Source of the DNA: Myxococcales bacterium
GTDB lineage: Bacteria; Myxococcota_A; Bradymonadia; REDH01
NCBI GenBank assembly: GCA_947496715.1
Contig: CANMDT010000002.1
Coordinates: 3,398-67,397, forward strand
Length of the DNA: 64,000 bases
Direction: 5' to 3'
The position numbers and the translations under genes were made by a program. This document shows positions 2,086-37,512 of the stretch, piece by piece. Below the pieces are notes generated by a model. That model searched no databases, was not told the origin of the DNA, and was given only the letters and a program-made list of their open reading frames with translations. The number at the start of each line of letters is the position of its first letter. Positions within the stretch are counted from its first letter, which is position 1.

Positions 2086-3293
2086 GCGCCCCCCTCTCTC
2101 CGCTCCTTGAGGCAGCCGCAGCACGCGTGGCCGACGGCGGCAACAGGCCAGCTGCGGCCGCCGCGCTCGAACGGCTCCTGGCCACCGGCCTGCCCACCCG
2201 CCGCGACGAAGACTGGCGCTACCTCCAGCTCGCGCCGCTTGCAGCGCTGGCACCCGTCGCCGGCAGCGAGGCTCCGCTCCCCGAGCTCCCCGCTCCGCTC
2301 GACGGCGAGCTCCGGCTCGTCTTCGTCGACGGCCAGCTTGCCACAGCGCTCTCCTCGCCCGAGACCGCCTGGTCTGGCTGGAGGTCCGACCGCTCCGTGG
2401 AACCGCTCACCGCCTTCGGTGAGCTCGCCGCAGCCATCGCGCCCGCAGCCGTCGGCCTTGCGCTCCCGGCCGGCCTGCAGCTTGCCGGTCCGCTCCACCT
2501 GCTCTTCCTCCACACCCGCGCGGGCGCCACGCTCAGCGGTGCCACCTTCGCCCTCTCGCTGGGCCGCGGCACCGAGGCGACGCTCGTCGAGAGCCACCTC
2601 TCCGCCGACGGCGCAAACGGCCTCGCCACGGTCGCCCTCGACCTTACGCTCGCCGACGGCGCAGCCCTCACCCATATGAAGTTCCAGGAGCTCGGCCGCG
2701 GCCTCTCCCACCTCGCCGACACCCGCGTCACAACCAGCCGCGACGCCCGCTACAAGAGCGTCTCGCTCACGGGCGGCGCCCTGCTCTCGCGCGACACGCT
2801 CGCCGTCACCGTGAACGGCACCGGCGCCCACACCGAGCTGCAGGCCCTCTTCCTCCCCGGCGAAGGGCAGACACACGACCACCACACCGCGCTCGACCAG
2901 ACGCAGCCCGACTGCACCGCGCGCCAGGTCTACAAGAGCATCCTCCGCGGCAACGGCCACGCCATCTTCAACGGCAAGGTCTTTGTCCGGCAGGCCGCAC
3001 AGCGCACCAACGCCGACCAGTCGAGCAAGAGCCTGCTCCTCGACAAGGCCTGCCGCGTCGACGCCAAGCCCCAGCTCGAGATCTTCGCTGACGATGTCCG
3101 CTGCACCCACGGTGCCACCGTCGGCCAGCTCGACCCGGCCGAGCTCTTCTACCTCATGTCGCGGGCCATCCCGCGGAGCCGCGCCGAAGAGCTGCTGCTC
3201 CACGGCTTCGCCGTGGACGTCCTCAACGAACTCGGCCAACCCGCACTGCTCGAGCGCGGACTGGCGCTCCTCACCCGTTTCTCGGAGGCGTAG
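2082..3293 (+). CDS. sufD: Fe-S cluster assembly protein SufD
   Basis: C-terminal SufB/SufD beta-helix core motif (…[39 protein letters not shown]…). Position directly after sufC; start overlaps the sufC stop. Confidence 0.85.
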
Positions 3294-3295
3294 TC

Positions 3296-3868
3296 ATGGG
3301 CTTCTACATTCACGTTCAGGAGACACCCAACCCCAACGCGGTGAAGTTCATCTCCTTCTACACCGTGAAGTCGCACGGGAAGAGCAACTACCGGAGCGCC
3401 GAAGAGGGCGAGCATGTGCCCGTGGCACGCGAGATCTTCGCGGTCGGCGGCGTCGAGCAGATCTACCTCTTCGACAACTACATCACGGTCACCAAGCGGA
3501 GCGACCTGCCCTGGGGCGAGCTCTCCAAGAGCATCCTCGACCTGCTCCAGATGGCGCTGCCTGTGCATGACCCCGACTTCACCGACCCCGAGCCGCCGGC
3601 CTCGGAGAACCAGGTCGAGAAGACCCCCGAGATCCTCGCCATCGAGGAGATCCTCGACCGCACCGTGAAGCCCTACCTTGCGGCAGACGGCGGCGGCATC
3701 GAGGTCATCGAGCGCCAGGGCGACAAGATCTTCATCAAGTATCAGGGCGCCTGCGGCACCTGCCCCAGCTCGGTGGGCGGCACCCTCATCGCCATCCGCG
3801 ACGTACTCCGCGACGAGCTCGGCCCCGACATCGAGGTCATCGAAGTGGGCGGCGCGATGTTCGGCTAG
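3296..3868 (+). CDS. nfuA: Nfu/NifU-like Fe-S cluster scaffold/carrier protein
   Basis: N-terminal Nfu_N-like segment plus C-terminal NifU domain with a CxxC motif (…YQGACGTCPSS…). Starts 2 bp after the sufD stop, so part of the suf operon. Confidence 0.78.
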   Translation: MGFYIHVQETPNPNAVKFISFYTVKSHGKSNYRSAEEGEHVPVAREIFAVGGVEQIYLFDNYITVTKRSDLPWGELSKSILDLLQMALPVHDPDFTDPEPPASENQVEKTPEILAIEEILDRTVKPYLAADGGGIEVIERQGDKIFIKYQGACGTCPSSVGGTLIAIRDVLRDELGPDIEVIEVGGAMFG

Positions 3869-4205
3869 TGAGCTGAGCAGACCTCCAAAACGGCGAAGGG
3901 CCGGTGAGCGTGCCCGTGGTGCCGTCAGTGCTGCTGTCGACCACCTTCACGAGGCGGTTGTTCGCCGTCTCCGTGGTGGTGGCGAAGAGCGTCGCGGTGT
4001 TGGCGGTACAGGAGCCCGAGAGGCCGCGCAGGCTCCGGCCGTTGGCAACGGTGCAGGCTCGGATGTCGGCCGCGTTATCCCGCGTCATCTGCATGACCAA
4101 CCCACCCGCCCCAGCCCCCATCTGCGCCTCTGCCTCGACAGCCCGACCGGCCCTGAGTAAGCCCGCACCTGCGCCAGGTCGGCGCCCGACAGACGGAGCA
4201 GGCAG

Positions 4206-4973
4206 ATGGAACGCAAGGGTCAGATCGCATTGGTGGTAGGTGGTGCTTCGGGTCTTGGCGCGGCAACGGTCCGCCGCCTCCATGCAGCCGGCGTCCAGGT
4301 CTTCATCGGTGACCGCAACGCAGAGGTGGGCAACGCCCTCGCCGCAGAGCTCGGCGAAGGCGCCTCGTTTGTGCCGGTGGATGTGACCGATGAGGCCAGC
4401 GTGAAGGCTGCCGTCGCCACCGCCGCCGCTGCCGGCCCGCTTCGCATCGCCGTCAACACCGCCGGTGTTGGCATGGCCGCCAAGCTCCTCGGACGCGACG
4501 GCTCGCCGCACGACCTCGGCGTTTTCGAGATGGTCATGAAGATCAACCTCTTCGGCACCTTCAACGTGCTCCGTTACGCGGCCGCCGCCATGGCCACCAA
4601 CGAGCAGCTCCCGAGCGGCGAGCGGGGCGTGGTCATCAACACCGCCTCCATCGCCGGGTACGACGGCCAGATCGGCCAGATCGCCTATGCCTCCTCCAAG
4701 GCCGGCGTCATCGGCATGACGCTGCCCGCTGCCCGCGACCTCATGAAGAACAACATCCGGGTGGTCACCATCGCCCCCGGCGTCTTCGACACCCCGCTGC
4801 TCGCCATGCTCCCCGCACCCGCCCGCGAGGCGCTCGAGGCCACGGTCCCCAACCCCAGCCGGCTCGGCAAGCCCGATGAGTATGCCAAGCTGGCCTGTGC
4901 CATCATCGACAACGGCTACCTCAACGGCGAGGTCATCCGCCTCGATGGCGCGCTCCGGATGCCGCCCCGCTGA
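4206..4973 (+). CDS. Short-chain dehydrogenase/reductase (3-hydroxyacyl-CoA dehydrogenase type-2-like SDR)
   Basis: N-terminal Rossmann motif [13 protein letters not shown] motif and catalytic YASSKAG (YxxxK). 255 aa. Confidence 0.85.
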
Positions 4974-5046
4974 AGCGGGCAGGCCGCGCGGGGCAAGCGG
5001 GAGGAGCGGCAGACAGAGGGCGGGTGAGGTCCTTCGCCCATTCCTG

Positions 5047-5269
5047 CCCCAACGGGGCAGAGCATACCAGTCCAGGGCAACGCCCTGGGGATCATGCGAC
5101 GCACATTTCCGGACTCTAACGGAACGCCGCAGATCATCGCATCACCCACCCGCGCCCGAACGATTCCCCGCGCCCGAACGATGCGGCGCTTCTTCAGAGC
5201 GCATCCACAACCTCCACCCATTTCCCAGGGTTGCACCCTGGGCTGGTATGCGTTGACCCTTTGGGTCAA
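5047..5269. mobile_element. MITE-like non-coding element, copy 1
   Basis: ~220 bp element with imperfect terminal inverted repeats: left ...gcataccagtccagggcaacgccctgggg, right cccagggttgcaccctgggctggtatgc. Small GC hairpins at both extremities: ccccaacgggg and ttgaccctttgggtcaa. Internal direct repeat ccgcgcccgaacgat x2. Near-identical copies at 5568-5814 and a partial copy at 14499-14578. Confidence 0.55.
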
Positions 5270-5308
5270 ATGGGAACGCGGTGCTCCTGGCTGCTCCACC
5301 TCGGCGCC

Positions 5309-5491
5309 GGCGCCTCCTTCGTGGCGTTCGATATGACCCACGAGGCCAGCGTGAAGACCAACGTCCCTAACCCCAGCCGGCTCGGCAAGCCCGATGAGTA
5401 TGCCCAGCTCGCCTGTGCCATCATCGAGAATGGCTACCTCAACGGCGAGGTCATCCGCGCAGGCGGCGCGCTCCGGATGCCGCCCCGCTGA
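5309..5491 (+). pseudogene. Internally deleted fragment of the upstream SDR gene. Codons ~60-72 are fused to the last ~43 codons including the stop.
   Basis: DNA and translation ([16 protein letters not shown]|[44 protein letters not shown]) match SDR gene segments 4357-4405 and 4843-4973. Same deletion junction as the copy at 14617-14798. Confidence 0.7.
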
Positions 5492-5567
5492 AGCTGGCCT
5501 GTGCGCGGGGCAAGCGGAGCAGATAGTCGCGGTAGGCAGAGGGCGAGTGAGGTCCGTGACCAATCCC

Positions 5568-5814
5568 TGCCCCAACGGGGCAGAGCATACCAGCCCAGGG
5601 CAACGCCCTGGGGATCATGCCACGCAAATTTCCGCATGCTATCGGAACGCCGCAGTTCGTCGCATCACCCTCCCGCGCCCGAACGATTCCCCGCGCCCGA
5701 ACGATGCGGCGCTCCTTCAGAGCGCATCCACACCCTCCATCCCATGCCCCGCGTGCATGCCCACCATTCCCAGGGTTGCACCCTGGGCTGGTATGCGTTG
5801 ACCCTTTGGGTCAA
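5568..5814. mobile_element. MITE-like element, copy 2 (contains a ~25-bp internal insertion relative to copy 1)
   Basis: Same terminal inverted repeats and terminal hairpins as copy 1. Preceded by the same ~70-bp spacer that follows the intact SDR gene. Confidence 0.55.
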
Positions 5815-5821
5815 ACGGATC

Positions 5822-5839
5822 GCAGCCCTGCAGGGCTGC
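5822..5839 (-). terminator. Perfect 18-nt GC-rich palindrome (gcagccctgcagggctgc), candidate terminator stem ~50 nt downstream of the giant gene stop
   Basis: Perfect inverted repeat seen directly in the sequence. On the minus strand the stem is followed by GAUCCGUUUG, a weak U tract. Could act bidirectionally. Confidence 0.35.
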
Positions 5840-5887
5840 GCTACCGATGGCCCGCTTACAAGGGTCAAGGGTTCACTGCACCGCCCT

Positions 5888-8800
5888 CTACGGCACGGTC
5901 CGCGCGAGGCGAAGGCCGAGGTTGCCGTAGCGAATGGTCGGCGCGCCAGAGTATCGACCCCCGGCACGCGCGTAGCGTGAGGGGTTGGACCACGACCCAC
6001 CGCGAAACGCCCGGGCGGAGCCTGTGCTGGCGCCGAGCGGGTCGGTCACCGTGCCAGGGTAGGTCACATTGTACCAGTCGCCCGTCCACTCCCACACATT
6101 GCCAAGCATGTCGAAGAGGCCAAAGCTGTTTGCAGTTTTGCCGCCAACCGTGCGCGACCGGTTTCCGCTGTTGATGCACCACCAGTCAATGCTTTCCAGA
6201 TTGGCCTGTGCTGTCGTGCAATCGGTAGTCGCACCGCTCAGGTTCCCCAGGTAGGTGGCCGTGGTTGTGCCGCCACGCGCCGCATACTCCCACTCGCTCT
6301 CGGTGGGCAGCCTGAAGCCCGTGCAGGTGAGGCCCGCGAAGGTGGCACCCGTGCAACCGCTGTGGATGCCATCCCTCCAGCCGTTGGCCGCGTCGGTGCA
6401 ACCTGTGAGCGTGTAGCAGGAGGCGTGCCCCTCTGCGGCGGACTTGGCGTTGGCAAAGGCCAAGGCTGCGTACCAATCCAGGTACTCCACAGGGCCGCTG
6501 TCGTTGGCGTTGGTGGTGGTCTGTACCGTGCCGGTGGTGGACTGGAAGAAGGAGGGGTTGGTGCCGCTGCTCAGCGCCTTCCACTGCCCCTGCGTCACCT
6601 CTGTCTGACCCATGAAGAAGCGACGAGAGATGGTCACGCTATGCTGCGTTTCGTCCGTGTAGCGGCCCACCTCGGTGGAGGGCGAACCCATGGTGAAGGT
6701 ACCGGCGGGGATGTAGTTCATGCCGATAGGCGCGCAGCGGTCGTTGGCCGTGCCCGTCGGGCCGGTGGCGCAGTTGCCGGAGGCACACTCGGTGTTGAGC
6801 GTGCAGGAGGTGCCTACGAATGAGCCAAAGGAGCATACCCCAACATTGACCTCGTACCCGCTCGCGCAGGCCGATGCGATGCAGCTGGCGTAGACGCTCC
6901 CCGTCCAGGTCTGCGTGCCGGCCGTCGTGTTGGCGGGCAGGGTCGAGCAGCTACGCGTGTTGCTCAGGCAGGCGCCGCCCTCCACATGGTAGGTCGCAGC
7001 GCACGTCGTCGCTGTGCAGCTGCCATAGACGCTGGTGCCGCTGTTCCACGTCTCAGTCGCCACTGTTGCGTTGGCGAGCGAGCAGCTCCGGGTGTCGCTC
7101 AGGCAGGCACCGCCCTCCACATGGTAGGAGGTGGCGCAGGTCGTCGCAGTGCAGCTCCCATAGGCGCTGGTGGCGCTGTTCCAGCTCTGGGTGCCAGCCG
7201 TCGTATTGGCAGGCATCGGAGAACAGGTGCGGGTGTCGCTCAGGCAGGCGCCGCCCTCCAGATGGTAGGAGGCAGCGCAGGCCGTAGCCTCGCAGCTGCG
7301 CCAGCCGGTCGCGTTGGCCGCCTCGACGGCCGCGGTCGCGTTCGCGGGCAACGCTGCGCAGCTACGCGTGACTGTCCTAGCGAGGCGCAGGCCGAGCGTG
7401 TTGACGCGGTTGCTCGGCGCGCCGCGGCTGCGAAACGCAGCGCGTTCTTGGTTTGCGCTGTAGAGCCACGCCCCACCGCGACGCAATCGCTCGGAGCCCG
7501 TCGAGGGACCCGTCGGGTCGGTCACCGTACCAGGGTAGGTGCCATACCAGTCGCCCGTCCACTCAAAGACGTTGCCCAGCATGTCGGAGAGGGCAAAGCT
7601 GTTCACAGCTTTAAGGCCCACCGCTTGGGTACGAGATCCACTGGTCTTGCACCACCAGGCGATGCCATCCAGATAGGTCTGTGATCTCGTGCAATTGGTA
7701 ACCGTACTGCTCAGGTTCCCCAGATAGGTGGCCGTGGCGGTACCGGCCCGCGCCGCACGCTCCCACTCGCTCTCGGTGGGCAGCCGGTAGCCCGTGCAGG
7801 TGAGGCCCGAGAAGGTGGCGCCTGAGCACCCGCTGTGGATACCGTCTTTCCAGCCGTTGGCTGCGTCGGTGCAGCCCGTGAGCGCGTAGCAGGCGGTGAG
7901 GCCCTCTGCCGCGGATCGGGCGTTGGCGAAGGCGGCTGCCGCATACCAGTCCATGTACTCCGCGGGGCCGCTGTCGTTGGCGTTGGCAGTGCTCTGTGTC
8001 CTGACGAGCGTAGACTGGAAGAAGGAGGGGTTGAGGCCGCCGGAGAGCGCCTTCCACTGCCCCTGCGTCACCTCTGTTTGATTCATGAAGTAGCTGCGAG
8101 AGAGGGTCACGCTGTGCTGCGTCTCGTCGGCAACGCGGCCTCGTTCCGTCGAAGGCGAACCCATGGTGAAGGTGCCGGCGGGGATGTAGTTCATGCCGGT
8201 CGGCGCGCACCGGTCGTTGGCCGTTCCCGTCGGGCCCGTGGCGCAGAAGCCCGAGGCGCACTGGGCGCTGAGCGTGCAGGCTGCGCCGAGGCTCCCAATG
8301 CAGGCGCCAGCGACAACGTTGTAACTGCTCGCACAGGTCGTCGCCGTGCAGCTCCCATAGGCGCTGCCCGTCCAGGTCTGGGTGCCGGCCGTCGTGTTGG
8401 CGGGCATGGGAGAGCAGGTGCGGGTGTCGCTCAGGCAGGCGCCGCCCTCCACATGGTAGGAGGTGGCGCAGGTCGTCGCGGTGCAGCTTCCATAGGCGCG
8501 GGTGGCGCTGTTCCACGTTTGCGTGGCGGCCGTCGTGTTGGCAGGCATCGGAGAACAGGTGCGGGTGTTGCTCAGGCAGGCACCACCCTCGAGGTGGTAG
8601 GAGGCCGCGCAGGCCGTGACCTCGCAGGCGCCCCAGCCAGTGGAATTGGCCGCCTCGACGGCAGTGGTCGCATTCGCAGGCAACACGGCGCAGCCGCGCG
8701 TGACAGTCCTCGCGAGGCGCAAGCCGACATCGCCGGTGCGGCCGCCTGGCGCACCATCGACGCGAAACGCAGCCCGCGCGTTGCTGGCGCTGTAGAAGTA

Positions 8801-11800
8801 TGACCCGCCGCGAGCCACCCGCCGGGTGCCCGTCGTGACGCCGAGCGGGTCGGTCACCGTGCCTGGGTAGGTGCCATTCCAGTCGCCCGTCCACTCCCAG
8901 ACATTGCCCAGCATGTCGGAGAGGCCAAAGCTGTTTGCCGTCTTGCCGCCTACCGCCTGCGTGCGACTTCCGGCGTTCTTGCACCACCAGGCGATGCCAT
9001 CCAGATTGGCCTGCGCAGTGGTGCATCCTGTGACAGTTCCGCTCAGGTTGCCAAGGTAGGTGGCGGTGGTCGTTCCGCCACGCGCCGCATACTCCCACTC
9101 GCTCTCGGTGGGCAGCCGGTAGCCCCTGCAGGTGAGGCCCGCGAAGCTGGCGGCCGTGCAGCCGGTGTGGATGCCGTCCTTCCAGCCGTTTGCTGCGTCG
9201 GTGCAGCCCGTCAGCGTGTAGCAGGCGGTGAGCCCCTCTGCCGCGGACTTGGCGTTGGCAAAAGCCAAGGCTGCGTACCAATCTAGGTACTCCGCAGGGC
9301 CGAGGTTGTTGGCGTTGCTGGTGGTGCAGGCTGTGCCCGTCGTTGACTGGAAGCAGGAGGAGTTTGTGCCCCCGGAGATCGCCTTCCACTGCCCCTGCGT
9401 CACCTCAGTCTGCCCCATGAAGAAGCTTCGGGTAAGCGTCACGCTGTGCTGCGTCTCGTTGATCGCTCGGCCCACCTCGGTGGAGGGCGAACCCATCGTG
9501 AAGGTGCCGGCGGGGATGTAGTTCATGCCGGTAGGTGCGCACCGGTCGTTCTCGGTTCCCGCTGGGCCGGTGGCACAGACACCGCTGGCGCACTCGGCGT
9601 TGGCGGTGCAGGAGGTGCCGACGGATGAGCCCAAGGAGCATACACCTAAGTTGACATCGTACCCGCTCGCGCAGGCGGTCGCCGTGCAGCTTCCATAGGC
9701 GATGCCCGTCCAGGTCTGGGTGCCGGACGTGGTGTTGGCGGGCAGGGGCGAGCAGCTCCGCGTGTCGCTGAGACAGGCGCCGCCCTCCACATGGTAGGTC
9801 GCATCGCAGGCCGTGGCGTTGCAGGTTCCGTAGCTGCTCGTGACGCTGTTCCAGCTCTGCGCGCTGGCCGTTGCATTGTCGGGCAGGGGTGTGCAGCTCA
9901 GGGTGTCGCTCAGGCAGGCGCCGTCCTCGACATGGTAGGTCGCAGCGCAGGTCGTGGCGTTGCAGCTCCCATAGGCGCTGGTGCCGCTGTTCCAGGTCTG
10001 CGTGCCGGCCGTCGTGTTGGCGGGCAGGGGCGAGCAGCTCCGGGTGTCGCTCAGGCAGGCGACGCCCTCCAGATGGTAGGAGGTGGCGCAGGTCGTCACC
10101 GTGCAGCTTCCATAGGCGCTGGTGGCGCTGTTCCACGCCTGGGTGGCCAATGTGGCGTTCGGGAGCGAGCAGTTCCGGGTATCGCTCAGGCAGGCGCCCC
10201 CCTCCAGATGGTAAGAGGCCGAACAGGCCGTAGCCTCGCAGGCGCCCCAATCGGTAGCGGTGGCCGCCTCGATGGCTGCGGTCGCATTCGCCGGCAACGC
10301 GGCGCAGCCGCGCGCGACGGTCCTCGAAAGGCGAAAGCCGAGCGTGTTGAAGCGATTGACCGGCGCGCCGTTGCCCCAGGCGCGAAACGCGGCCTTCTCC
10401 CCGGTGGCGATGTACTGCCACGACCCACCGCGATACACGCGGTAAACGCCCGTCGTGGCGCCGAGCGGATCGGTCACCGTGCCAGGGTAGGTGCCGTACC
10501 AGTCGGCCGTCCATTCCCAGAGATTGCCCAGCATGTCGTAGAGGCCAAAGCTGTTTGCCGTCTTGCCGCCTACCGCCTGCGTGCGACCGCCAGCGTTGAT
10601 GCACCACCAGGCGATGCCGGCCAGATTGGCCTGTGCCGTGGTGCAATTGGTAACCGTACCACTCAGGTTCCCACCGTAGGTTGCCGTCGCCGTACCGGCC
10701 CGCGCCGCATACTCCCACTCGCTCTCCGTGGGCAGCCGGTAGCCCGTGCAGGTGAGGCCCGAGAAGGTGGCCCCCGTGCACCCGCTGTGGATACCGTCTT
10801 TCCATCCGTTGGCTACGTCGGTGCAGCCCGCGAGCGTGTAGCAGGAGGCGAGCCCCTCTGCCGCGGAGCGGGCGTTGGCAAAGGCGACTGCCGCATACCA
10901 GTCCATGTTCTCCGCGGGGCCTGCATTGTTGGCGTTGGCAGTGCTCTGTGTCGTGACGGTCGTGGACTGGAACCAGGAGGGGTTGAGGCCGCCGGAGAGT
11001 GCCTTCCACTCCCCCTGCGTGACCTCTGTAAGATTCATGAAGAAGCTGCGCGAGATGGTCACGCTATGCTGCGTCTCGTCGGCAACGCGGCCTACCTCGG
11101 TTGCGGGCGACCCCATCGTGAACGTTTCGGCCGGGATAAAGTTCATGCCGGTAGGCGCGCAGCGGTCGTTGGCCGTACCCGCAGGGCCGGTGGCACAGAA
11201 GCCGGTGGCGCACTGGGCATTGGCCGTGCAGGAGTTGCCGATGATGGGTTGCAGGCCGCAGGCACCTGCGCTCAAGATGTAGCCGCTCGCGCAGGTCGTG
11301 GCCGTGCAGGCGCCATAGGCGCTGCCCGTCCACGTCTCGGTCGCGACTGACGCATTGGCGAGCGAGCAGTCGCGGCTGTTGCTCAGGCAGGCTCCCGACT
11401 CCACGTGGTAGCCCGAGTTACAAATCCCAGGGGTGCAGCTGCCGTAGCTGCTGGTATCGCTGTTCCATGTCTCCGTGGCTGTACCGTTGGCCAGCGTGCA
11501 GACCCGTACATTGGCCACGCAGGCGGCGCTCTCGAGGTGATAGGAGGCGGCACAGGCGGTCGCCGTGCAGCTGCCGTAGCTCTCTGTGTCGCTGTCCCAG
11601 CTCCGGGTTGCTGCGGTCGCGTTGGCGAGCGTGCAACTCAGCTCGTCGGCCTCGCAGCTGTCGACCGCGATGTGGTAGCCGTCGTTGCAGCTCTCAAGGG
11701 TGCAGATGCCGTTATAGGAGTTGCCGGTCCACTGCTCGGTGCCCTCGCCGTTGGCCAACAGGCAGCTCCGCGTGTCGCTTGTGCAGAGGCCACCCTCAAG

Positions 11801-14278
11801 GTGGACGCCGGTGCCGCAGGCGCAGGCATCGCTGCAGCTGTCTTCATTGTCTGTGTTTCCATCGTCGCAGACCTCGGAGGCATCGAGGATGCCGTCGCCG
11901 CAGATGTGGGTCGCGCCCGCCGCGATGGTGCAGGTCGCGCTGCAGACAGCGCAGGAGGCCGCGCCGTAGGCGCACTCCTCGGTCACCGTGTTGCCGTCGT
12001 CGCAGCCATCCACGCCCGCCTGCTCCACGCCGTCGCCGCAGGTGGCAATTGTGCAGACAGTGGTGCAGGCGTCGGTGGCGTCCAGGTTGCCATCATCGCA
12101 GGCCTCGCCGGCCTCCACTGCGCTGTTGCCGCAACCGGCTGCCACGCATGCCCCCGCGAGCAGGCTGTAACCCGCATCACAGCCCGTCGCCGCACAGGCG
12201 GTGTAGTCGCTGCCCGTCCAGCTCTGCGTTGCCGTCGTCGCATTCGCGACGGAGCAGCTCAGCGTGTCGCTGGCGCAGGCGCCCGCCTCCACATGGTAGG
12301 TGGCATCGCAGGCAGTCGCCGTGCAGGCGCCATAGGCGCCCCCGGTCCAGCTCTCGAAGGCTGCAGTAGCGTTCGCCGCCACGCAGCTGCGGGCGTTGCT
12401 GGTGCAGACGCCGCTCTCCACATGGTAGCCTGCCCCACAGAGGCAGCTGTTGGAGCAACTGTCGTCATTGTCTGTGTTGCCGTCGTCGCAGAACTCGGCT
12501 GCATCCAGGGTGCCGTCGCCGCAGAGGTCGGTCTCGCCCGCCGCGCTAACGCAGGTCGCATTGCAAATGGTGCAGGAGGCCGCGCCATAGTTGCACTCTT
12601 CGGTCAGCACATTCCCATCGTCGCAGCCCTCTACACCCGCCTGCACCAGGCCGTCGCCGCAGGCGGCCACCGCGCAGCTGGCCGTGCAGCCATCGGTCGC
12701 CACCAGGTTGCCGTCGTCGCAGGCCTCGCCAGCCTCCACCACGCTGTTGCCGCATCCGGCCGCAACGCAGGTTCCGTTGGAGAGGGTGAATGCACCGTAA
12801 CAGGCGCTGGCCACGCAGCTGTTCCAGCTGCTGCCGTTCCAAGTCTGGTCGCCCGCGCCGCCCGTCAGCAAGCAGCTCCGCGCGTCGCTCGCGCAGGCGC
12901 CGCTCTCTACATGGTAGCCCGTATCGCAGCTGCTGGGCGCGCAACTGCTCCAGGCCGAACCGAGCCAGGTCTGGCTCCCCGCGCCGTCGGCGAGGGTACA
13001 ACTCCGCGTGTCGAGCTCGCAGGCGCCGCTCTGCGCGTGGTAGCCGGCGTTGCAGCCCGTGAGGGAGCAGCTTCCCCAGGCACCGGCATTGTAGGTGCGG
13101 CTTCCCGTACCGTTCGCCACCGCGCAGGCGCCGGTGTTCGACACGCAGTCGCCACCCTCGAGGTGATGGGTGGGAAGGCAGCCCGACGCCGTGCAGGCGC
13201 CATACTCAGCGCCGGTCCATGTCTCCGTTGCGGCGGTAGCGTCGGCAGACGAGCAGGAGCGGGTGTCGCTCGCGCAGCTGCCGCTCTCCATGTGGTAGCC
13301 GCTGTTGCAGCTCACGATGGCACATGCCGCCCAGCTGCCCGCGGCGTAGCTCTGGCTGCCGATCCCGTTGGTGATGGAGCAGGCGCGCATGTCGCTCGCG
13401 CAGGCACCACTCTCCACATGTTCGCCGCTCGGGCAGCCACCGGGTGAGCAGAGGCCGGCCGTGCAGGCCAGGTCGGCGGCGCAGTCAGCCGTGGCCGCAC
13501 AGCTCTGCCCCTGGGTGCGGCAGCCGAGCGCTTCGTCGGTGGCGCCGTCGCAGTCGTTGTCGAGGCCGTCACAGAGCTCCGTCACGTTGGCCACAACGCG
13601 ACCGGTGAAGGTAAAGTTGCTGCCCGACCGGGCAAAGACCCAGTTGCGGACGCCGGCATTGGCGGGCGCAGACGAGGCTGGGCCTAGGTCGCCATAGGCC
13701 CAGGAGCCGAGGCCGCTCGAGGCACCAGGGATCACATCTCCGTTCTGCACGCCAAACCCTGTTGAGGGGACCAGCGCCTGGATCTGGGCAAAGACCTGCG
13801 TTTGCGGTGATGTGTAGAAGGAGCGGACCGTGACCGCGCCGCAGAAGAGGGGCGAGGCCAGATAGCCTTCGCATGCAGCGTCGAGCCCCGTGGTCCCCGT
13901 CACGAGCTCGAGCGAGTTGGCAGGCCCGGAGCCGGCCACACCGTCCTGCACGATGCTGAGGGTGCAGAGCCCCTGCGCCAGCCGACGGAGTCTCGGGTCG
14001 GACGAGGCCGCGGGATCGAGCTTCGTGAGGACCATCGCGCCATTGGCGGTTACGGTGCCGCGGAACTCCGCGAGCGTCAGCAGCCCAGACAGTGGCTCGG
14101 TAGCGGCCTCTGCAGAGGCGTCGCCCTGCCCGCCGTCTGGCAGCAGGATCGCCGCGTCGGGGATGAAGAGCCCACCATCGGGCGCCGTTGGCAGCGCGGC
14201 GGTAGGAGCCTCATCCTGAGCGCAGGCGCCGAGGAGGAGAGCAAAGGGCAGGAGGCGTGCAACAGAGCGCAGCAGCAT
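5888..14278 (-). CDS. Giant secreted lipoprotein (2796 aa). Four tandem FGE-sulfatase (SUMF1 / formylglycine-generating-enzyme family) domains are each preceded by Cys-rich ~35-aa repeats. N-terminal region carries Myxococcus-type cysteine-rich repeats.
   Basis: Signal peptide with lipobox LLGAC. Four copies of the FGE-family signature (…GYRLPTESEWEYAARGG… / …NSFGLxDMLGNVWEWTxDW… / …RGGSW…GFRL…). Many 'CxxGYHxExGACxSDTRSC' repeats. CGDGxxxxGxExCDDGN myxobacterial Cys-rich repeats. CDGLDNDCDGATDE motif. Confidence 0.85.
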   Translation of the reverse strand: MLLRSVARLLPFALLLGACAQDEAPTAALPTAPDGGLFIPDAAILLPDGGQGDASAEAATEPLSGLLTLAEFRGTVTANGAMVLTKLDPAASSDPRLRRLAQGLCTLSIVQDGVAGSGPANSLELVTGTTGLDAACEGYLASPLFCGAVTVRSFYTSPQTQVFAQIQALVPSTGFGVQNGDVIPGASSGLGSWAYGDLGPASSAPANAGVRNWVFARSGSNFTFTGRVVANVTELCDGLDNDCDGATDEALGCRTQGQSCAATADCAADLACTAGLCSPGGCPSGEHVESGACASDMRACSITNGIGSQSYAAGSWAACAIVSCNSGYHMESGSCASDTRSCSSADATAATETWTGAEYGACTASGCLPTHHLEGGDCVSNTGACAVANGTGSRTYNAGAWGSCSLTGCNAGYHAQSGACELDTRSCTLADGAGSQTWLGSAWSSCAPSSCDTGYHVESGACASDARSCLLTGGAGDQTWNGSSWNSCVASACYGAFTLSNGTCVAAGCGNSVVEAGEACDDGNLVATDGCTASCAVAACGDGLVQAGVEGCDDGNVLTEECNYGAASCTICNATCVSAAGETDLCGDGTLDAAEFCDDGNTDNDDSCSNSCLCGAGYHVESGVCTSNARSCVAANATAAFESWTGGAYGACTATACDATYHVEAGACASDTLSCSVANATTATQSWTGSDYTACAATGCDAGYSLLAGACVAAGCGNSAVEAGEACDDGNLDATDACTTVCTIATCGDGVEQAGVDGCDDGNTVTEECAYGAASCAVCSATCTIAAGATHICGDGILDASEVCDDGNTDNEDSCSDACACGTGVHLEGGLCTSDTRSCLLANGEGTEQWTGNSYNGICTLESCNDGYHIAVDSCEADELSCTLANATAATRSWDSDTESYGSCTATACAASYHLESAACVANVRVCTLANGTATETWNSDTSSYGSCTPGICNSGYHVESGACLSNSRDCSLANASVATETWTGSAYGACTATTCASGYILSAGACGLQPIIGNSCTANAQCATGFCATGPAGTANDRCAPTGMNFIPAETFTMGSPATEVGRVADETQHSVTISRSFFMNLTEVTQGEWKALSGGLNPSWFQSTTVTTQSTANANNAGPAENMDWYAAVAFANARSAAEGLASCYTLAGCTDVANGWKDGIHSGCTGATFSGLTCTGYRLPTESEWEYAARAGTATATYGGNLSGTVTNCTTAQANLAGIAWWCINAGGRTQAVGGKTANSFGLYDMLGNLWEWTADWYGTYPGTVTDPLGATTGVYRVYRGGSWQYIATGEKAAFRAWGNGAPVNRFNTLGFRLSRTVARGCAALPANATAAIEAATATDWGACEATACSASYHLEGGACLSDTRNCSLPNATLATQAWNSATSAYGSCTVTTCATSYHLEGVACLSDTRSCSPLPANTTAGTQTWNSGTSAYGSCNATTCAATYHVEDGACLSDTLSCTPLPDNATASAQSWNSVTSSYGTCNATACDATYHVEGGACLSDTRSCSPLPANTTSGTQTWTGIAYGSCTATACASGYDVNLGVCSLGSSVGTSCTANAECASGVCATGPAGTENDRCAPTGMNYIPAGTFTMGSPSTEVGRAINETQHSVTLTRSFFMGQTEVTQGQWKAISGGTNSSCFQSTTGTACTTSNANNLGPAEYLDWYAALAFANAKSAAEGLTACYTLTGCTDAANGWKDGIHTGCTAASFAGLTCRGYRLPTESEWEYAARGGTTTATYLGNLSGTVTGCTTAQANLDGIAWWCKNAGSRTQAVGGKTANSFGLSDMLGNVWEWTGDWNGTYPGTVTDPLGVTTGTRRVARGGSYFYSASNARAAFRVDGAPGGRTGDVGLRLARTVTRGCAVLPANATTAVEAANSTGWGACEVTACAASYHLEGGACLSNTRTCSPMPANTTAATQTWNSATRAYGSCTATTCATSYHVEGGACLSDTRTCSPMPANTTAGTQTWTGSAYGSCTATTCASSYNVVAGACIGSLGAACTLSAQCASGFCATGPTGTANDRCAPTGMNYIPAGTFTMGSPSTERGRVADETQHSVTLSRSYFMNQTEVTQGQWKALSGGLNPSFFQSTLVRTQSTANANDSGPAEYMDWYAAAAFANARSAAEGLTACYALTGCTDAANGWKDGIHSGCSGATFSGLTCTGYRLPTESEWERAARAGTATATYLGNLSSTVTNCTRSQTYLDGIAWWCKTSGSRTQAVGLKAVNSFALSDMLGNVFEWTGDWYGTYPGTVTDPTGPSTGSERLRRGGAWLYSANQERAAFRSRGAPSNRVNTLGLRLARTVTRSCAALPANATAAVEAANATGWRSCEATACAASYHLEGGACLSDTRTCSPMPANTTAGTQSWNSATSAYGSCTATTCATSYHVEGGACLSDTRSCSLANATVATETWNSGTSVYGSCTATTCAATYHVEGGACLSNTRSCSTLPANTTAGTQTWTGSVYASCIASACASGYEVNVGVCSFGSFVGTSCTLNTECASGNCATGPTGTANDRCAPIGMNYIPAGTFTMGSPSTEVGRYTDETQHSVTISRRFFMGQTEVTQGQWKALSSGTNPSFFQSTTGTVQTTTNANDSGPVEYLDWYAALAFANAKSAAEGHASCYTLTGCTDAANGWRDGIHSGCTGATFAGLTCTGFRLPTESEWEYAARGGTTTATYLGNLSGATTDCTTAQANLESIDWWCINSGNRSRTVGGKTANSFGLFDMLGNVWEWTGDWYNVTYPGTVTDPLGASTGSARAFRGGSWSNPSRYARAGGRYSGAPTIRYGNLGLRLARTVP
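5900..11400. repeat. Four imperfect tandem DNA repeats (~1.4-1.6 kb each) inside the giant gene, one per FGE-domain module
   Basis: Alternative-frame minus-strand ORFs beginning at ~6584, ~7950, ~9389 and ~11009 give near-identical translations (MEG…QPLLLPVH.RH.T.H.QRQ…). This shows nucleotide-level periodicity. The protein has four FGE modules. Confidence 0.75.
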
Positions 14279-14284
14279 GGGAGA

Positions 14285-14495
14285 TCTTCCAGAGGCATGG
14301 TCCTAGCGCGCGAGCGAAAGCCAGATTGTAAATGAGGATTGGCTTACAAACGTAACCGAAAGGTCATACGGAATCAAAAAAGGAGCGCCGAGATAGTTTG
14401 ATCGTCCGCAGTCTCGAATCAGATAAAATCTAGAATGACTCTCGAAATGTGTGTTCGAAAATCTAACAAATGTATGTAATTTTCCATTCTATCGT
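14285..14495 (-). promoter_or_regulatory. AT-rich island (GC far below the ~70% background), presumed promoter/leader of the giant gene. Contains inverted repeat TTGTAAatgaggattggcTTACAA (14326-14349).
   Basis: Lies directly upstream of the minus-strand start at 14278. The compositional contrast is visible by eye (…gtaaatgaggattggcttacaaacgtaaccgaaaggtcatacggaatcaaaaaagg…). Confidence 0.45.
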
Positions 14496-14498
14496 GGC

Positions 14499-14578
14499 TC
14501 CTTCAGAGCGCATCCATACCCAACATCCCATTCCCAGGGTTGCACCCCGGGCTGGTAGGCGTTGACCCTTTGGGTCAA
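14499..14578. mobile_element. MITE-like element, copy 3 (right-hand ~80 bp only; left part missing at the junction with the AT-rich island)
   Basis: …cttcagagcgcatcca…cccagggttgcaccccgggctggtaggcgttgaccctttgggtcaa matches the right half and right inverted repeat of copies 1 and 2. Confidence 0.5.
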
Positions 14579-14616
14579 ACGGGACCCGGCGCTCTTCGCA
14601 GCTCAGCCTAGGCGAC

Positions 14617-14798
14617 GGCGCCTCCTTCGTGGCAGTCGATGTGACCGACGAGGCCCGCATGAAAACCACCGTCCCCAACCCCAGCCGGCTCGGCAAGCCC
14701 GATGAGTATGCCCAGCTGGCCTGTGCCATCATCGACAACGGCTACCTCAACGGCGAGGTCATCCGCCTCGATGGCGCGCTCCGGATGCCGCCGCGGTA
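14617..14798 (+). pseudogene. Second copy of the internally deleted SDR gene fragment
   Basis: [17 protein letters not shown]|[43 protein letters not shown] shows the same internal deletion junction as 5309-5491. Confidence 0.7.
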
Positions 14799-14858
14799 GG
14801 GCAACGCGTACCGCAGTTCTTGCGAACCGCCGAGTTCGACAGGTAAACTGCGGGCGCC

Positions 14859-17800
14859 ATGACGACCCCTGTACATTTTGGACCCTTTCTGGTGCGCGAG
14901 CGGATCGGTGTAGGCGGCTTCGGCGAAATCTACCGCGCGGTGCATCAGGAGGCTGGCCTCGAAGTGGCGATCAAGGTTGTGACTGCGGAAGTAGCGCGTC
15001 ATCCATCATATCTGAATGATTTTCGTAGGGAAGTTCGTGCCGTGGCCGGGCTGGACCACCCGAATATCGTTCAGGTCTTTGACTACGGCACCATCCCTTC
15101 GAAGGCCGCCGCTGCACTCCCAAGACTGGTCGCTGGTAGCCCCTATCTCGTGATGGAGCTCGCTTCGGGTTCCGTAGCCGACCTGCCGATGCCAATGGCA
15201 TGGCAGACCTGCAGGATGCTCCTCCACGACCTGCTCTCTGCGCTCGGCCATGCCCATTCGAGGGGACTGGTTCACCGAGACATCAAGCCTGGAAACACGC
15301 TACTCGTCGATGGACGCGAAGGACGCATCGTCAGGCTCTCTGACTTTGGCATCGCCCAGAACTGGGGAGTCAAGGATGGCGGCGTTGAGCTGGACGCTGC
15401 GGTAGGCACCCCGTTTTACATGGCTCCGGAGCAGTTCGCCGCGCGCTGGCGCGACTTCGGCCCCTGGACCGACCTTTATCAGGTCGGAATCTTCGCCTTC
15501 GAGATGGCCTTTGGAGTGTACCCCTTTCAAGCTGACACCTTCATGGGTTTCGGGCTGCAGCACCTTCGCGCACCGCTGCCGCGCATGCCGGTTCCCGCCG
15601 GCTACCCGGCAGGTTTTGGTGACTGGCTCCAGACGATGTGCGCGAAGGAGACCCGAAGGCGCTTCGCCTCTGCGGCAGAAGCTGGTTGGGCGCTCGCAGC
15701 ACTGGAGGACATGGGGCGGCCCGAGCCAGACGCGGAAGGCCGCGGGCGCACGGAGTTTGGCGTGTTTCGCAGGAGACGCGCAGACTTGGGTGCCTTCGAG
15801 GCGACACTGGGAGGTAGGATCGACGGCGGCGGCCAAACGCTGATGTTCGATCCGTCACTCACCGACAGCCTTGCAGATCATCCTGTCCAACAGGAACCGA
15901 CGACCCATGGGATTCCGTGGCAGCCGGCGCCGATCGAGGGGCAGACGGGAAGCGCGGGCGCCCGTCTCGGCAGCGTCGGTGCGGGACTCTTCGGGCTGCG
16001 AACCATCCCCATTGTGGGTCGAGAGGCAATTCAACAGCAGTTGTGGGCGGCGCTGCGGAAGCGACACCTCAAGCGAGAGCCTGCCGCGGCGCTGCTTGGA
16101 GGCAGCGCGGGCGTTGGCAAGAGCAGACTCGCAGCGTGGCTCACCGACTCTGCCACGGAGCTGGGATTGGCATCATCCGTGGTCATCCGGAGCGGTCCCG
16201 AAGAGGGCAGCGGCCTGCTGGGCCGGACCGTGGCCGAACGCTACCGCTGCAATGGGTTGAAGCGGCTGGAGGCACGGCTTCGTTTGGAGCAAGTGCTCGC
16301 GGAAGAGGGTGTTACGGATCGTGCAGAGGTTGAGGGTCTGGTTGCTCTCGTGAGCGAGGGCCTTGCGGGAGTCGAACCGCCAGAAAGCAGCGCACGAACC
16401 ATCAGGTTCGGTAGCCCGCTCGAACGACAGGCGGTCTTTGAACAGCTGCTGAGACGAGCCGCTGCGCGACAGCCGGTTCTGGTCTGGCTGGATGATGCCC
16501 ACTTCGGCGGAGAAGCACTCGCAGCCATGGTTTCCATTGCGCGTCAGGCACGAGACCTTCCCCTGCTCACCCTGGTCACCTTCCGCGAAGACCTGCTCGA
16601 AGACCGACCGGTTGAACGGGCGCTGCTCGAGGAGCTGGCAGCGCACTCCGCGAGCACGACCATCATCGTGCCGCCTCTGGATGAAGAGGCGCAACATGAG
16701 CTGGTCGCTCGGATGCTGGGGCTGAGTGGAGCGCTGGCGGCGAGTATCCGAATGCGTGCAGCTGGCAACCCCCTGTTCGCGGTGCAGCTTGTCGGCGATC
16801 TCATCGCGCGAGGCGAGCTTGTTGGCAGGCCAGGCGGCTTCTCGCTGCGAACCGGGATAACGCTCCGACTCCCGAACGATGTTCGTTCACTTTGGCTCGG
16901 CCGCATCGAGCAGGTCGTGTCGGAATCGGGACCCGATGTGAAGGTTGCGCTGGAGCTTGCGGCCCTGCTCGGTGTCAGTGTCGACGGTCAGGCGTTCGCA
17001 GAGCTGAGCCGGCGTGTGGGGCTGATCGACGGTTCAGCGCTTCTGGGCTCGGTCGCGGGCACCGGTCTGATCGAACAGACCTCGGTCGGTTGGCGCCTCG
17101 CGCACCCGCTCCTGCGGGACACTCTCGAGCGCGAGGCGCGGACCCGGATCGACTGGATGGACTGGAACCACGCCTGCGCGGAGGCGCTCACTACCATCTA
17201 CGATCGGGGCATGCGTGGCCTATCCGCGCGGCGGGCAGGCTACCTCGCCGAGGCCCTTGCGTGGGACGAGGCACTAGAGGCGATCACAGAGGCCGTAGCA
17301 GAGGCACTTCACGCGGGTGAGACACTACCCATCCCGGAGCTGCTCGACCGGCAATCCGAGATTTTGGACGCGCTCCGAGTGCCGAGCTGTGATCCTCGTC
17401 GGGCAGAGGCGCTGTTGACGCGGGCAGAGGCCTACCGGCTGCAGTGGAACTTCGGTGCAGCGGCAGAGTGGGCTGACCTTGCGCTGGCGGCGGCAGACCG
17501 CGCAAGCAGCCCCCGGCTGCGGGGCGAAGCCTACCTTTGTCGAATGCACATCGCACGCCAGCAGGGTGACAGCGGGCAGGCAGAGGTTCTTGCCACGGAG
17601 GCGCTGACGACCTTCCGCACCTTGGACGACGGCCGCGGCCTCGGACGCACCTATCTCGGCTTGGCCATTCTGCTCCGGACGCAGGGCCGTATCACGGAGG
17701 CCTTGGGAAACTACGAGCGCGCCCTGGCAGAGTTTGTCGAGATTGGTGACGAAGTGAGCGCGGCGCGCTGCCGGCTCGGGGTGGCCCACCTGCATCGCGG

Positions 17801-18401
17801 TCAGGGCAGGCATCGACAAGCATTGGCACTCTATGAAACTGCGCTCGAGAGGTTTGAATGCGAAGGGGTCCGGAACGAGGTGATTCAGGCGCGGGTGGGG
17901 CTCGCAGAGGTCGCCCGCTTTGAAGGTCGCCTCGAGGAGGCTCGGCAGGCCTACGAAGAAGCGCTAGGGCTTCAGCGAGCGATTGGGGATCGGAGCCTTT
18001 CGATCACCCGCTGCAACCTTGCGCTGGTCGCACTTTCGCAGCGTCAGTTTGCTGTTGCTCGCCGGCAGCTCGAACTGGCGGAGACCGAGATGATTCAGGC
18101 CGGACAGCGCGGGACACTGGTCTATGTGCAGGTCTTGCTGCTGGCCTGCATCGCCGCAGCGGGTGAAAAGGCGCTCTGGGAGCGACAGCTTGCAGCGGCA
18201 GCGAAGGCGTTGGAAGAGACCGGAACGGTGGACCTGGACCTTGCAAAGGCGCTGGAACTGGCCGGCGCATTGATGATGGAGCGAGGTCTGAAGGCACGAG
18301 CCAGAGATGGCTGGCGGCTCGCGCTAGCCCAGTTCAAGAAGCTGGAGGACGAAAAGGGCGCGGCCCGGATCGGACTGCTGCTCGTCTCGACGGAAAGCTG
18401 A
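14859..18401 (+). CDS. Ser/Thr protein kinase fused to a STAND-type P-loop ATPase and C-terminal TPR repeats
   Basis: Kinase glycine loop GVGGFGEIY, catalytic HRDIKPGN, DFG. P-loop GGSAGVGKSRL near aa ~410. Multiple TPR-like repeats at the C-terminus (…ALGNYERALAEF… / …ALALYETALERF…). Confidence 0.9.
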   Translation: MTTPVHFGPFLVRERIGVGGFGEIYRAVHQEAGLEVAIKVVTAEVARHPSYLNDFRREVRAVAGLDHPNIVQVFDYGTIPSKAAAALPRLVAGSPYLVMELASGSVADLPMPMAWQTCRMLLHDLLSALGHAHSRGLVHRDIKPGNTLLVDGREGRIVRLSDFGIAQNWGVKDGGVELDAAVGTPFYMAPEQFAARWRDFGPWTDLYQVGIFAFEMAFGVYPFQADTFMGFGLQHLRAPLPRMPVPAGYPAGFGDWLQTMCAKETRRRFASAAEAGWALAALEDMGRPEPDAEGRGRTEFGVFRRRRADLGAFEATLGGRIDGGGQTLMFDPSLTDSLADHPVQQEPTTHGIPWQPAPIEGQTGSAGARLGSVGAGLFGLRTIPIVGREAIQQQLWAALRKRHLKREPAAALLGGSAGVGKSRLAAWLTDSATELGLASSVVIRSGPEEGSGLLGRTVAERYRCNGLKRLEARLRLEQVLAEEGVTDRAEVEGLVALVSEGLAGVEPPESSARTIRFGSPLERQAVFEQLLRRAAARQPVLVWLDDAHFGGEALAAMVSIARQARDLPLLTLVTFREDLLEDRPVERALLEELAAHSASTTIIVPPLDEEAQHELVARMLGLSGALAASIRMRAAGNPLFAVQLVGDLIARGELVGRPGGFSLRTGITLRLPNDVRSLWLGRIEQVVSESGPDVKVALELAALLGVSVDGQAFAELSRRVGLIDGSALLGSVAGTGLIEQTSVGWRLAHPLLRDTLEREARTRIDWMDWNHACAEALTTIYDRGMRGLSARRAGYLAEALAWDEALEAITEAVAEALHAGETLPIPELLDRQSEILDALRVPSCDPRRAEALLTRAEAYRLQWNFGAAAEWADLALAAADRASSPRLRGEAYLCRMHIARQQGDSGQAEVLATEALTTFRTLDDGRGLGRTYLGLAILLRTQGRITEALGNYERALAEFVEIGDEVSAARCRLGVAHLHRGQGRHRQALALYETALERFECEGVRNEVIQARVGLAEVARFEGRLEEARQAYEEALGLQRAIGDRSLSITRCNLALVALSQRQFAVARRQLELAETEMIQAGQRGTLVYVQVLLLACIAAAGEKALWERQLAAAAKALEETGTVDLDLAKALELAGALMMERGLKARARDGWRLALAQFKKLEDEKGAARIGLLLVSTES

Positions 18402-24423: not shown

Positions 24424-24586
24424 GCGGCTCGGGCTGAGATGCGGGAGGGATGCAGGAGACCACAGCCCACGCGCCGAGGCAAGCGCCCTGCTCCTATCTC
24501 TGCGCTCGGCCCCGATCCAAAGGCGAGACGGGTTTGCCCAACCTCCACCGTTGCCCCGCGACGCGCCTTCCGACTAGGCAGGGCGC

Positions 24587-37396: not shown

Positions 37397-37452
37397 ACGG
37401 GGCCAGCAGAGAGCGATGCCATGTTTCGGGGCGGGCCAAAAGTTTGCGCCGA
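37397..37452 (+). promoter_or_regulatory. ~56-bp conserved motif, copy B
   Basis: cagagagcgatgccatgtttcggggcgggccaaaagtttgcgccgatcggcagg, 61 bp upstream of the AMIN/coiled-coil gene start. Confidence 0.4.
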
Positions 37453-37512
37453 TCGGCAGGATCCGTAGAAGTTGGCAGACCGATTTCTATCCCCGCACCG
37501 TTCCGCTGCCGC

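Follow-up and report, generated by a model that had tools for sequence, protein, structure and literature searches.

The stretch of DNA analysed here (the window) comprises 64 kb of a Myxococcales genome, with about 67% G+C. On the 3' side of a dehydrogenase gene it carries a non-coding element of about 225 bp, called E, which is built of two inverted hairpin modules. A first-pass annotation had presented E as a repeated element resembling a miniature inverted-repeat transposable element (MITE). We found that its modules are, in other genomes, the mirror-image ends of a gene for a Y1/HUH transposase, and that the copies present in the window were multiplied by local duplication.

Anatomy of the element and its copies

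The dehydrogenase gene (4206-4973, plus strand) is an intact short-chain dehydrogenase/reductase (SDR) or 3-hydroxyacyl-CoA dehydrogenase-like gene, as judged from its translation, a Pfam adh_short match and its homologues. It is separated by a 71-nt spacer (4974-5044) from the first copy, E1, which begins 72 nt past the SDR stop codon. E1 (5045-5270) is a complete doublet with a left module on the plus strand, a centre and a right module on the minus strand, recognised by the inverted repeat, by covariance-model matches and by end-to-end alignment with two doublets of other genomes, one in a Myxococcales metagenome-assembled genome (MAG) (L051) and one in a member of the Verrucomicrobia (L029). 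A second complete doublet, E2, lies at 5568-5815. The inverted arms, 45-48 nt long and 75-78% complementary, pair 5045-5089 with 5224-5268 in E1 and 5568-5615 with 5766-5813 in E2. Their core is a 16-bp stem, GCATACCAG(Y)CCAGGG / CCCTGGGCTGGTATGC, and the tips fold into the hairpins TGCCCC-AAC-GGGGCA and TTGACCC-TTT-GGGTCAA.

A covariance model of the module (R1), run over the window with filters off, detected exactly five module cores in the 64 kb, every one at this locus. The left core of E1 (5041-5091, plus strand; 59.5 bits, E-value 5e-15) consists of the tip hairpin TGCCCC-AAC-GGGGCA, the linker GAGCATACCAG and the hairpin (T)CCAGGG-CAACG-CCCTGGG. The right core (5222-5272, minus strand; 59.0 bits), read on the reverse strand, consists of TTGACCC-AAA-GGGTCAA, CGCATACCAG and CCCAGGG-TGCAA-CCCTGGG. 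The cores of E2 scored 67.7 bits (5564-5614, plus strand) and 58.2 bits (5767-5817, minus strand), and the fifth core, at 14531-14581, scored 45 bits. It belongs to a single right-type module of 88 nt (14497-14584, minus strand) that extends from inner hairpin to tip hairpin and shares 87.5-92% identity with the right modules of the two doublets. The "2.4 copies" counted in the first-pass annotation are therefore two full doublets and a piece that is exactly one right-hand module.

Towards the centre of E1, the left module has a degenerate inner hairpin (TTCCG...CGGAA, followed by CGCCGCA; 5107-5124, plus strand), whose counterpart in the alignment with other doublets is their inner hairpin GCGTTCTGAAGGAACGCCGCA. 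The inner hairpin of the right module (GCGCT-TCTTCAG-AGCGC; 5186-5202, minus strand) aligns with that of the L051 and L029 doublets, and the single module starts from it, at 14497. The centre itself (5150-5182, plus strand) contains CCGCGCCCGAACGAT twice, as an 18-nt tandem duplication identified from matches within the window. This string occurs exactly two times per copy, giving a window total of four matches when 0.53 were expected. The L051 and L029 doublets have a single copy-equivalent of CCGCGCCCGAACGAT in their centres, and a relative of the window (L081) has two copies of a related repeat, GCGCTCGGACGATGCG; by this comparison, the doubling is a lineage-specific 18-nt duplication.

Arm probes gave three and two matches in the 64 kb with none expected, and folding against shuffled sequences gave z = -6.5 (E1) and -7.4 (E2) as RNA and z = -5.6 (E1) as single-stranded DNA. 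The inverted arms, tip hairpins and internal direct repeat that had been described are thus all present where they had been placed, and are non-random. The MITE-like, non-coding anatomy of inverted arms with terminal hairpins was confirmed, as was the folding that had been suggested as a check. The internal difference between the two doublets needed correction: E1 and E2 are 94.7% identical apart from one gap, which had been given as 25 bp and is 22 nt by alignment. The 22-nt segment (approximately 5741-5762, plus strand) occurs in E2, and neither in E1 nor in the copy at 14497. Since it is also found in both modules of L081, the longer form is probably ancestral.

Similarity with the L051 and L029 doublets ends at the outer feet of the tip hairpins. 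As these doublets align with E1 and E2 tip hairpin to tip hairpin and have unrelated flanks, the boundaries of E could be fixed at 5045 and 5270. The repeat locus is not an assembly artefact, since contigs from two other samples are colinear with it through the repeats, at 99.9% (window 2574-14973) and 99.8% (2683-6024) identity.

Local copies arose by segmental duplication

The repeated unit had been taken to be about 220 bp long. Alignment gave instead a period of 523 nt, which includes SDR-gene sequence, and similarity passes beyond the arms. Following E1 are the flank of its right module (5271-5308, plus strand), which by alignment is common to the relatives L012 and L081 and to a copy at 14582-14617; a remnant of the SDR gene, remnant 2 (5309-5491, plus strand), in which alignment places roughly codons 50-72 fused to codons ~213-255 and the stop codon; and a duplicate of the SDR-to-element spacer (5492-5567, plus strand), 78.6% identical to 4974-5044 in a continuous alignment. 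A further remnant, remnant 3 (14618-14799, plus strand), lies beyond the single module. The intact SDR gene is the source of these fragments. The two remnants have the identical internal deletion and represent one internally deleted SDR copy, in which nt ~121-216 (encoding ...GASFV.DxTxEASVK) run directly into the segment from nt ~637 to the stop codon. Both come after a right-hand module, with an identical junction. About 40 nt beyond the right-module hairpin are a flank shared in L012 and L081, and the junction between right module and SDR sequence is thus not at the hairpin foot. Over the final 132 nt of the SDR gene, identity to the intact gene is 90.9% for remnant 2 and 95.5% for remnant 3, and the remnants are 89.4% identical to each other. 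The greater closeness of remnant 3 to the intact gene than to remnant 2 suggests gene conversion or unequal rates. Remnants 2 and 3 were called as open reading frames (ORFs) of 73 aa and 46 aa by one gene caller (L001).

Because the flanking SDR remnants and their internal deletion are shared, the local copies, on both sides of a giant gene (5888-14278, minus strand), arose by tandem or segmental duplication together with SDR fragments and not by transposition. The duplication was seen in three assemblies. Two right modules, in direct orientation, now enclose the giant gene. The presence of 2.4 copies in 10 kb, which had been read as a sign of mobility, therefore has another origin.

The related contig L209, whose SDR protein is 94% identical, carries a giant-gene homologue (~70% nt identity), then 413 nt of AT-rich intergenic DNA, an intact SDR gene and prmC, and no module was found anywhere on it. 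In L081 and L012, right-type modules lie directly upstream of the giant-gene orthologue, in the same position as in the window; the giant gene of L081 is 80.7% identical over 4.4 kb, and this locus has two modules in tandem, each with the 22-nt segment. On this comparison of gene orders, the lack of a module in L209 as against the right modules in L081 and L012 means that the element was gained in the lineage of the window and afterwards rearranged with its neighbours. The prmC gene is at 24545-25446 in the window, ~10 kb on and past a kinase gene and two other large ORFs, and directly after the SDR gene in L209 (4611-5515), which points to ~9.7 kb having been inserted or rearranged between remnant 3 and prmC. 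In the window, E is most likely an inactive relic whose only visible effect is its position at the junctions of a local rearrangement.

Modules as mirror-image ends of a Y1 transposase gene

At the gathering threshold, Rfam gave no match in the whole window. In a permissive scan, the right arms at 5224-5268 (plus strand) and 5769-5813 matched RF01687 (Acido-Lenti-1) at 27.9 bits (E-value 4e-4), below its gathering score of 37 bits and unlike the members that pass it. Homologous arms in L060, L027, L054 and L105 scored 52.9-38.3 bits, above the gathering score. The family has the RF01687 architecture of a 7-8-bp hairpin, GCU, a ~12-nt linker with UAUG and a 5-bp hairpin with a 3-nt loop, as seen with cmscan, in the seed and in the family alignments. 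It is also multi-copy, like Acido-Lenti-1, for which the Rfam seed has tandem spacings of ~70-200 nt. By sequence and architecture, the window arms are clearly homologous to Acido-Lenti-1 members even though they score below the threshold, and the element had thus been wrongly called previously uncatalogued. Rfam lists the motif as a small RNA of unknown function from Acidobacteria and Lentisphaerae. The passages of Weinberg et al. that describe it in these two groups class it as a probable small RNA and add only that group II introns are sometimes close by; within those passages neither a transposase nor inverted doublets are connected with it (Weinberg 2010, PMC2864571). Our literature searches found no paper tying Acido-Lenti-1 to TnpAY1 subclass 1.2, no bacterial paper for the motif strings, and no description of this repeat family in the work on TnpAY1, TnpAREP and the REPtron.

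To follow the family, we scanned 185,579 species genomes with a degenerate 27-mer, CATACCAGNCCAGGGNNNNNCCCTGGG, that matches both arms. It was found in at least 119 genomic stretches from more than 10 phylum-level groups, against ~0.07 matches expected by chance for its 22 specified bases (our estimate). Among the matches listed, the hosts are Acidobacteriota, Verrucomicrobiota, Planctomycetota (including Brocadiia) and Lentisphaeria/Kiritimatiellia, as well as delta-, gamma- and beta-proteobacterial lineages, Myxococcales, Armatimonadetes and Chloroflexota. Many of them are less than 100 nt from a contig end; the modules disrupt metagenome assemblies, and they yield spurious small ORFs. At least 15 loci have converging plus/minus pairs 118-181 nt apart, compared with 161 nt in E1. 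Copies elsewhere had been named as a check on the element, and gene-less doublets with the geometry of E indeed occur in many other genomes. Several genomes have many loci with unrelated flanks, for example L021, L031, L056, L063 and L083 in one Thiodictyon bin. At least seven loci were found in this bin and at least 10 in one Lentisphaeria bin. Only three matches were obtained in 2.9 million viral contigs, and a viral origin was set aside.

The shared unit is ~100 nt long and consists of a 5-bp tip hairpin with a 3-nt loop, 3-4 nt, the linker CATACCAG, a 7-bp hairpin, ~22 variable nt, a small inner hairpin, 3-4 nt and CAT(A). It also forms head-to-tail tandem arrays with a 68-71-nt period (L060 2403-2590, L086 44-164, L136 2620-2955), from which it follows that the inner hairpin, read from these alignments, is the start of a next, truncated unit. 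The sequence between units is identical or nearly so in the L060 and L086 arrays, and in L136 five units lie immediately upstream of a Y1 transposase gene. A CRISPR-like reading of the 68-nt arrays of L060 was ruled out, their "spacers" being identical. Covariation was found at 5/5 tip-hairpin pairs in the set selected by pattern, where the loop-closing pair is T:G in 20 cases and A:C in one. In the set selected by protein, 10 of 12 pairs over both hairpins covary, with 99% of cells paired in an alignment that was fitted to the model. These results show that the modules are under selection for pairing. Among the single-stranded parts, CAT(A)CC is conserved and the AG before the long hairpin is invariant.

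Three features are confined to particular groups. In seven Verrucomicrobia loci, doublets lie downstream of rpoC. In one Lentisphaeria bin (L019, L023, L036, L040, L042, L046, L047, L052, L057, L074), the repeat is at least 27 nt longer outward (…atcggtcggatcggcgatgttggaatc…), and eight of these loci adjoin a permease-like ORF; because they share it, the module is there part of a longer repeated unit. In a Thiodictyon MAG (L027), a tRNA gene lies ~200 nt from the doublet (3-90 and 292-488).

All ORFs of the 119 loci selected by the motif were clustered. A protein of 150 aa was present in seven of them and adjoined the motif in six of the seven; it matched PF01797 (Y1_Tnp) at 80.7 bits and NF033573 at 59.7 bits. 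In L072, L008 and L091, the transposase gene lies between mirror-oriented modules with the inner hairpins facing the gene, and in L029, L113 and L010 it is closely preceded by a complete doublet. Other recurrent neighbours (rpoC, permeases and FGE-sulfatase proteins) were considered as partners; they reflect housekeeping genes or lineage synteny and none is credible. Gene-less copies outnumber gene-bearing ones ~20:1 among the motif-selected loci.

In the reverse approach the protein came first. A search with the seven aligned proteins brought up more than 587 relatives on metagenome contigs; the module model was then run over the best 80 loci, with counts based on the 150 strongest module matches only. 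A module was found in 63 of these 80 loci. A plus core lies within 250 nt upstream of the gene in 42/80, a minus core within 250 nt downstream in 43/80, and both in 25/80, and the median gap between module and gene is 54 nt on each side. From both directions, then, the modules are shown to be the mirror-image ends of a Y1/HUH transposase gene in other genomes, and the search for a cognate transposase with matching inverted repeats that had been called for ended in a Y1 IS200-like gene. All seven proteins have the motifs DHVH, WQ and YI(D/N/E)xQxxHH. Their closest solved structures are the TnpA proteins of IS608 and ISDra2, and the RAYT (REP-associated tyrosine transposase) of E. coli was not matched.

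Interpretation of the element and alternatives

The closest published concepts are REPtrons and REPINs, the TIRtrons (Di Nocera 2013) and the orphan subclass 1.2 of TnpAY1 (Quentin 2018). As in systems of repetitive extragenic palindromes (REPs) and RAYTs (Bertels & Rainey 2011, PMC3116915; Nunvar 2010, PMC2817692), two inverted palindromic units form one long hairpin. In other genomes, copies are both dispersed and clustered, including tandem arrays, and a Y1/HUH gene can be flanked by inverted units, as in the REPtron layout. Target-site duplications are lacking in both. REPs have one palindrome of 20-40 nt and are usually lineage-specific, whereas the ends of this family are ~100-nt modules of two or three hairpins, with a 27-mer common to many phyla. 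TIRYTs likewise are Y1 genes between long inverted repeats that are not canonical REPs, and some of their repeats form moderately abundant dimers or clusters, for example with Koribacter versatilis ORF1552 (Di Nocera 2013, PMC3733652). Most TIRYTs belong to subclass 2.1 of Quentin, with ~238 aa, a C-terminal helix-turn-helix and GGGGWSAS in the repeats, unlike the 150-aa protein found here, which has a subclass-1.2 signature, and its repeats, which are without GGGGWSAS. TnpAY1 proteins of subclass 1.2 have a median of 148 aa, DH[IV]H, WQ and YIKNQKEHH, and are low in copy number; they lack REP-like flanks and come mostly from Cyanobacteria and Bacteroidetes (Quentin 2018, PMC6006769). The seven proteins agree with this in length and motifs. 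They differ from the subclass as published in that their genes are flanked by structured inverted modules and in their hosts, which are members of the PVC (Planctomycetes-Verrucomicrobia-Chlamydiae) group, Acidobacteriota, Proteobacteria and others. The small Y1/HUH transposase and the subterminal hairpins near both gene ends are as in IS200/IS605 elements (IS608, ISDra2). In IS608, however, the ends are not mutual inverted repeats and both hairpins are on one strand, while the ends of this family are mirror images.

Taken together, these data make it probable, if well short of certain, that E is a gene-less doublet of Y1-transposase-end modules, a non-autonomous REPIN- or MITE-like derivative that was duplicated locally and is now likely an inactive relic. 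By analogy with the IS200/IS605 and REP/RAYT systems (PMC6006769, PMC3116915), the hairpins would be read as single-stranded DNA by a Y1 transposase, gene-less doublets would be moved or amplified in trans by the enzyme, and transposition would proceed without target-site duplication. On the same analogy, E could work as a REPIN or equally as a MITE derived from a Y1 transposase unit. Cleavage and joining might, speculatively, take place just after CAT(A), where inner and outer units cease resembling each other. In the window, one ancestral copy beside the SDR gene was multiplied by tandem or segmental duplication, a step that the data show. The element of the window is probably an ordinary, inactive member of the family. 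No target-site duplication was found at the boundaries of E1, E2 and the L051 and L029 doublets. Their search, proposed in the first-pass annotation, was thus negative; the accompanying rule that an element without them is immobile is not valid for Y1/HUH elements, which make none.

Several observations weigh against a Y1-derived doublet. The 64-kb window contains no Y1 transposase gene by tblastn, and E has no ORF of Y1 similarity. The family is without the GT[AG]G foot of REPs (neither GTAG nor GTGG), and its transposase is of class 1, with DHVH / WQ / YIxNQxxHH, and not a RAYT of class 2 (Y...NP) (PMC6006769). Among the matches listed from the 27-mer scan, L081 and L012 have one locus each, and the element is probably low-copy in the lineage of the window. 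No Y1-mediated transposition event was found among the loci compared. The only clean filled/empty pair (L097 6138-6543 against L099, empty near 6000) has the doublet inside an insert of ~400 nt, whose terminal inverted repeats are perfect over 23 bp (TTGTCATTACCCACATCTTTTCC) and which has a direct repeat of 12 bp (GCGTTGAAACGC). This insert sits in a hairpin (CCCGGCGTTGAAACGCCGGG) downstream of rpoC, occurs in a few related Verrucomicrobia only (also L102, L101 and L048), and is a separate MITE that captured a doublet. Since the doublet rides in it, at least some of the spread took place by another mechanism. Finally, the covariation of the hairpins is equally compatible with an RNA function.

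A wider proposal can be made with more reserve. Acido-Lenti-1 could be the structured terminal repeat of a cross-phylum class-1 Y1/HUH clade (subclass-1.2-like) and not an RNA gene. It would then represent a second, independent REP/RAYT-like system with two-hairpin ends, CATACCAG in place of GTAG and a 27-mer in more than 10 phylum-level groups, and E would be a gene-less doublet whose hairpin ends marked duplication breakpoints. We regard this as a serious possibility without being ready to call it probable. An orphan Rfam motif would gain a concrete and testable function, as the ends or partners of a Y1 transposase; a repeat family would be attached to a TnpA-Y1 subclass reported without any; and a single-stranded DNA hairpin signal would prove unusually conserved among very distant bacteria. 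The meaning for the window itself is very little, as E is a relic at duplication junctions with no sign of a regulatory function.

The alternative that survives best, although we consider it unlikely, is that the modules are a functional RNA kept for the benefit of the host, either a small RNA or a 3'-untranslated or intergenic stabiliser or attenuator co-transcribed with the SDR gene. The hairpins covary strongly, E1 sets in 72 nt after the SDR stop codon, doublets follow rpoC in the seven Verrucomicrobia loci, and the motif is a probable RNA in the relevant passages of Weinberg 2010 (PMC2864571). The T:G excess at the loop-closing pair (20 against one A:C) suggests a strand-specific structure, but strand-specific hairpins are likewise what Y1 transposases read. 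The modules are found in either orientation, in inverted pairs as well as tandem arrays, and an RNA gene leaves unexplained their mirror placement on the two sides of the transposase gene, at a fixed distance of 54 nt. Nor was a promoter or terminator evident: the scan of 4800-6000 gave no sigma-70-like or intrinsic-terminator-like site, contrary to the earlier idea that the element may supply such signals. The RNA and transposase readings need not be mutually exclusive.

Slightly less likely again is a domesticated structural DNA element, immobile everywhere, which would serve in protein binding, as a supercoiling or replication signal or as a recombination site (cf. the REP/BIME of E. coli), with the Y1 protein as a domesticated partner. 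Consistent with this are the conserved positions downstream of rpoC (seven loci) and upstream of the giant gene (window, L081 and L012), the extreme conservation of the 27-mer across phyla, and the local duplication junctions that adjoin the right module. Dispersed copies with unrelated flanks in one genome (the Thiodictyon bin), frequent positions at contig ends and absence from close relatives instead point to gain and loss.

Very improbable is a classical cut-and-paste DDE MITE whose 2.4 local copies are separate insertions. E does have inverted arms and a small, non-coding size, and in one Verrucomicrobia lineage a doublet lies within an insert that has terminal inverted repeats and a direct repeat at its borders. 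However, the terminal repeats on the outside of that insert (L097) were not found in the window, the four doublets examined for target-site duplications have none, and the sole recurrent neighbour that could plausibly act on DNA is Y1/HUH and not DDE. For the local copies, which share SDR-derived flanks and a common deletion, this explanation is largely refuted. That E is ordinary intergenic sequence with chance inverted repeats and no family can practically be dismissed: the local copies do come from local duplication, but at least 119 exact 27-mer matches in unrelated genomes, model matches of 45-68 bits and end-to-end alignment with doublets of other phyla already refute it.

The giant gene between E2 and the single module encodes a 2796-aa repeat protein with FGE-sulfatase domains; faint DUF4215 similarity was the other Pfam match. 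Its ORF contains four internal repeats of ~1.3-1.6 kb with 81-84% nt identity and many Cys-rich sub-repeats of 126-141 nt. Diversity-generating retroelements commonly act on the FGE-sulfatase fold. No link of such a retroelement to the element emerged, although no search was aimed at a reverse transcriptase or template repeat; the association of the element with the giant gene is positional, likewise in L081 and L012. An AT-rich patch (14280-14496) lies between the start of the giant gene and the single module, the 200-nt bins 14200-14399 and 14400-14599 having 55.5% and 50% G+C. It is probably the promoter region. Comparable AT-rich stretches precede the giant-gene homologues of L209 (3465-3620) and L081 (5770-5830).

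A gene with kinase, AAA_16 and TPR domains occupies 14859-18401 on the plus strand. One copy of the element had been placed in its upstream region. The copy concerned is the partial one, which is 219 nt upstream of the minus-strand giant gene; the kinase start is 275 nt away from it, with an SDR remnant in between. Farther along the window, an ORF of 1388 aa (37444-41610) contains in-frame tandem repeats at 40150-41257, with periods of 51, 159, 210, 318 and 369 nt and 88-97% matches; the repeat unit has a high content of Ala, Glu, Lys and Gln and is coiled-coil-like.

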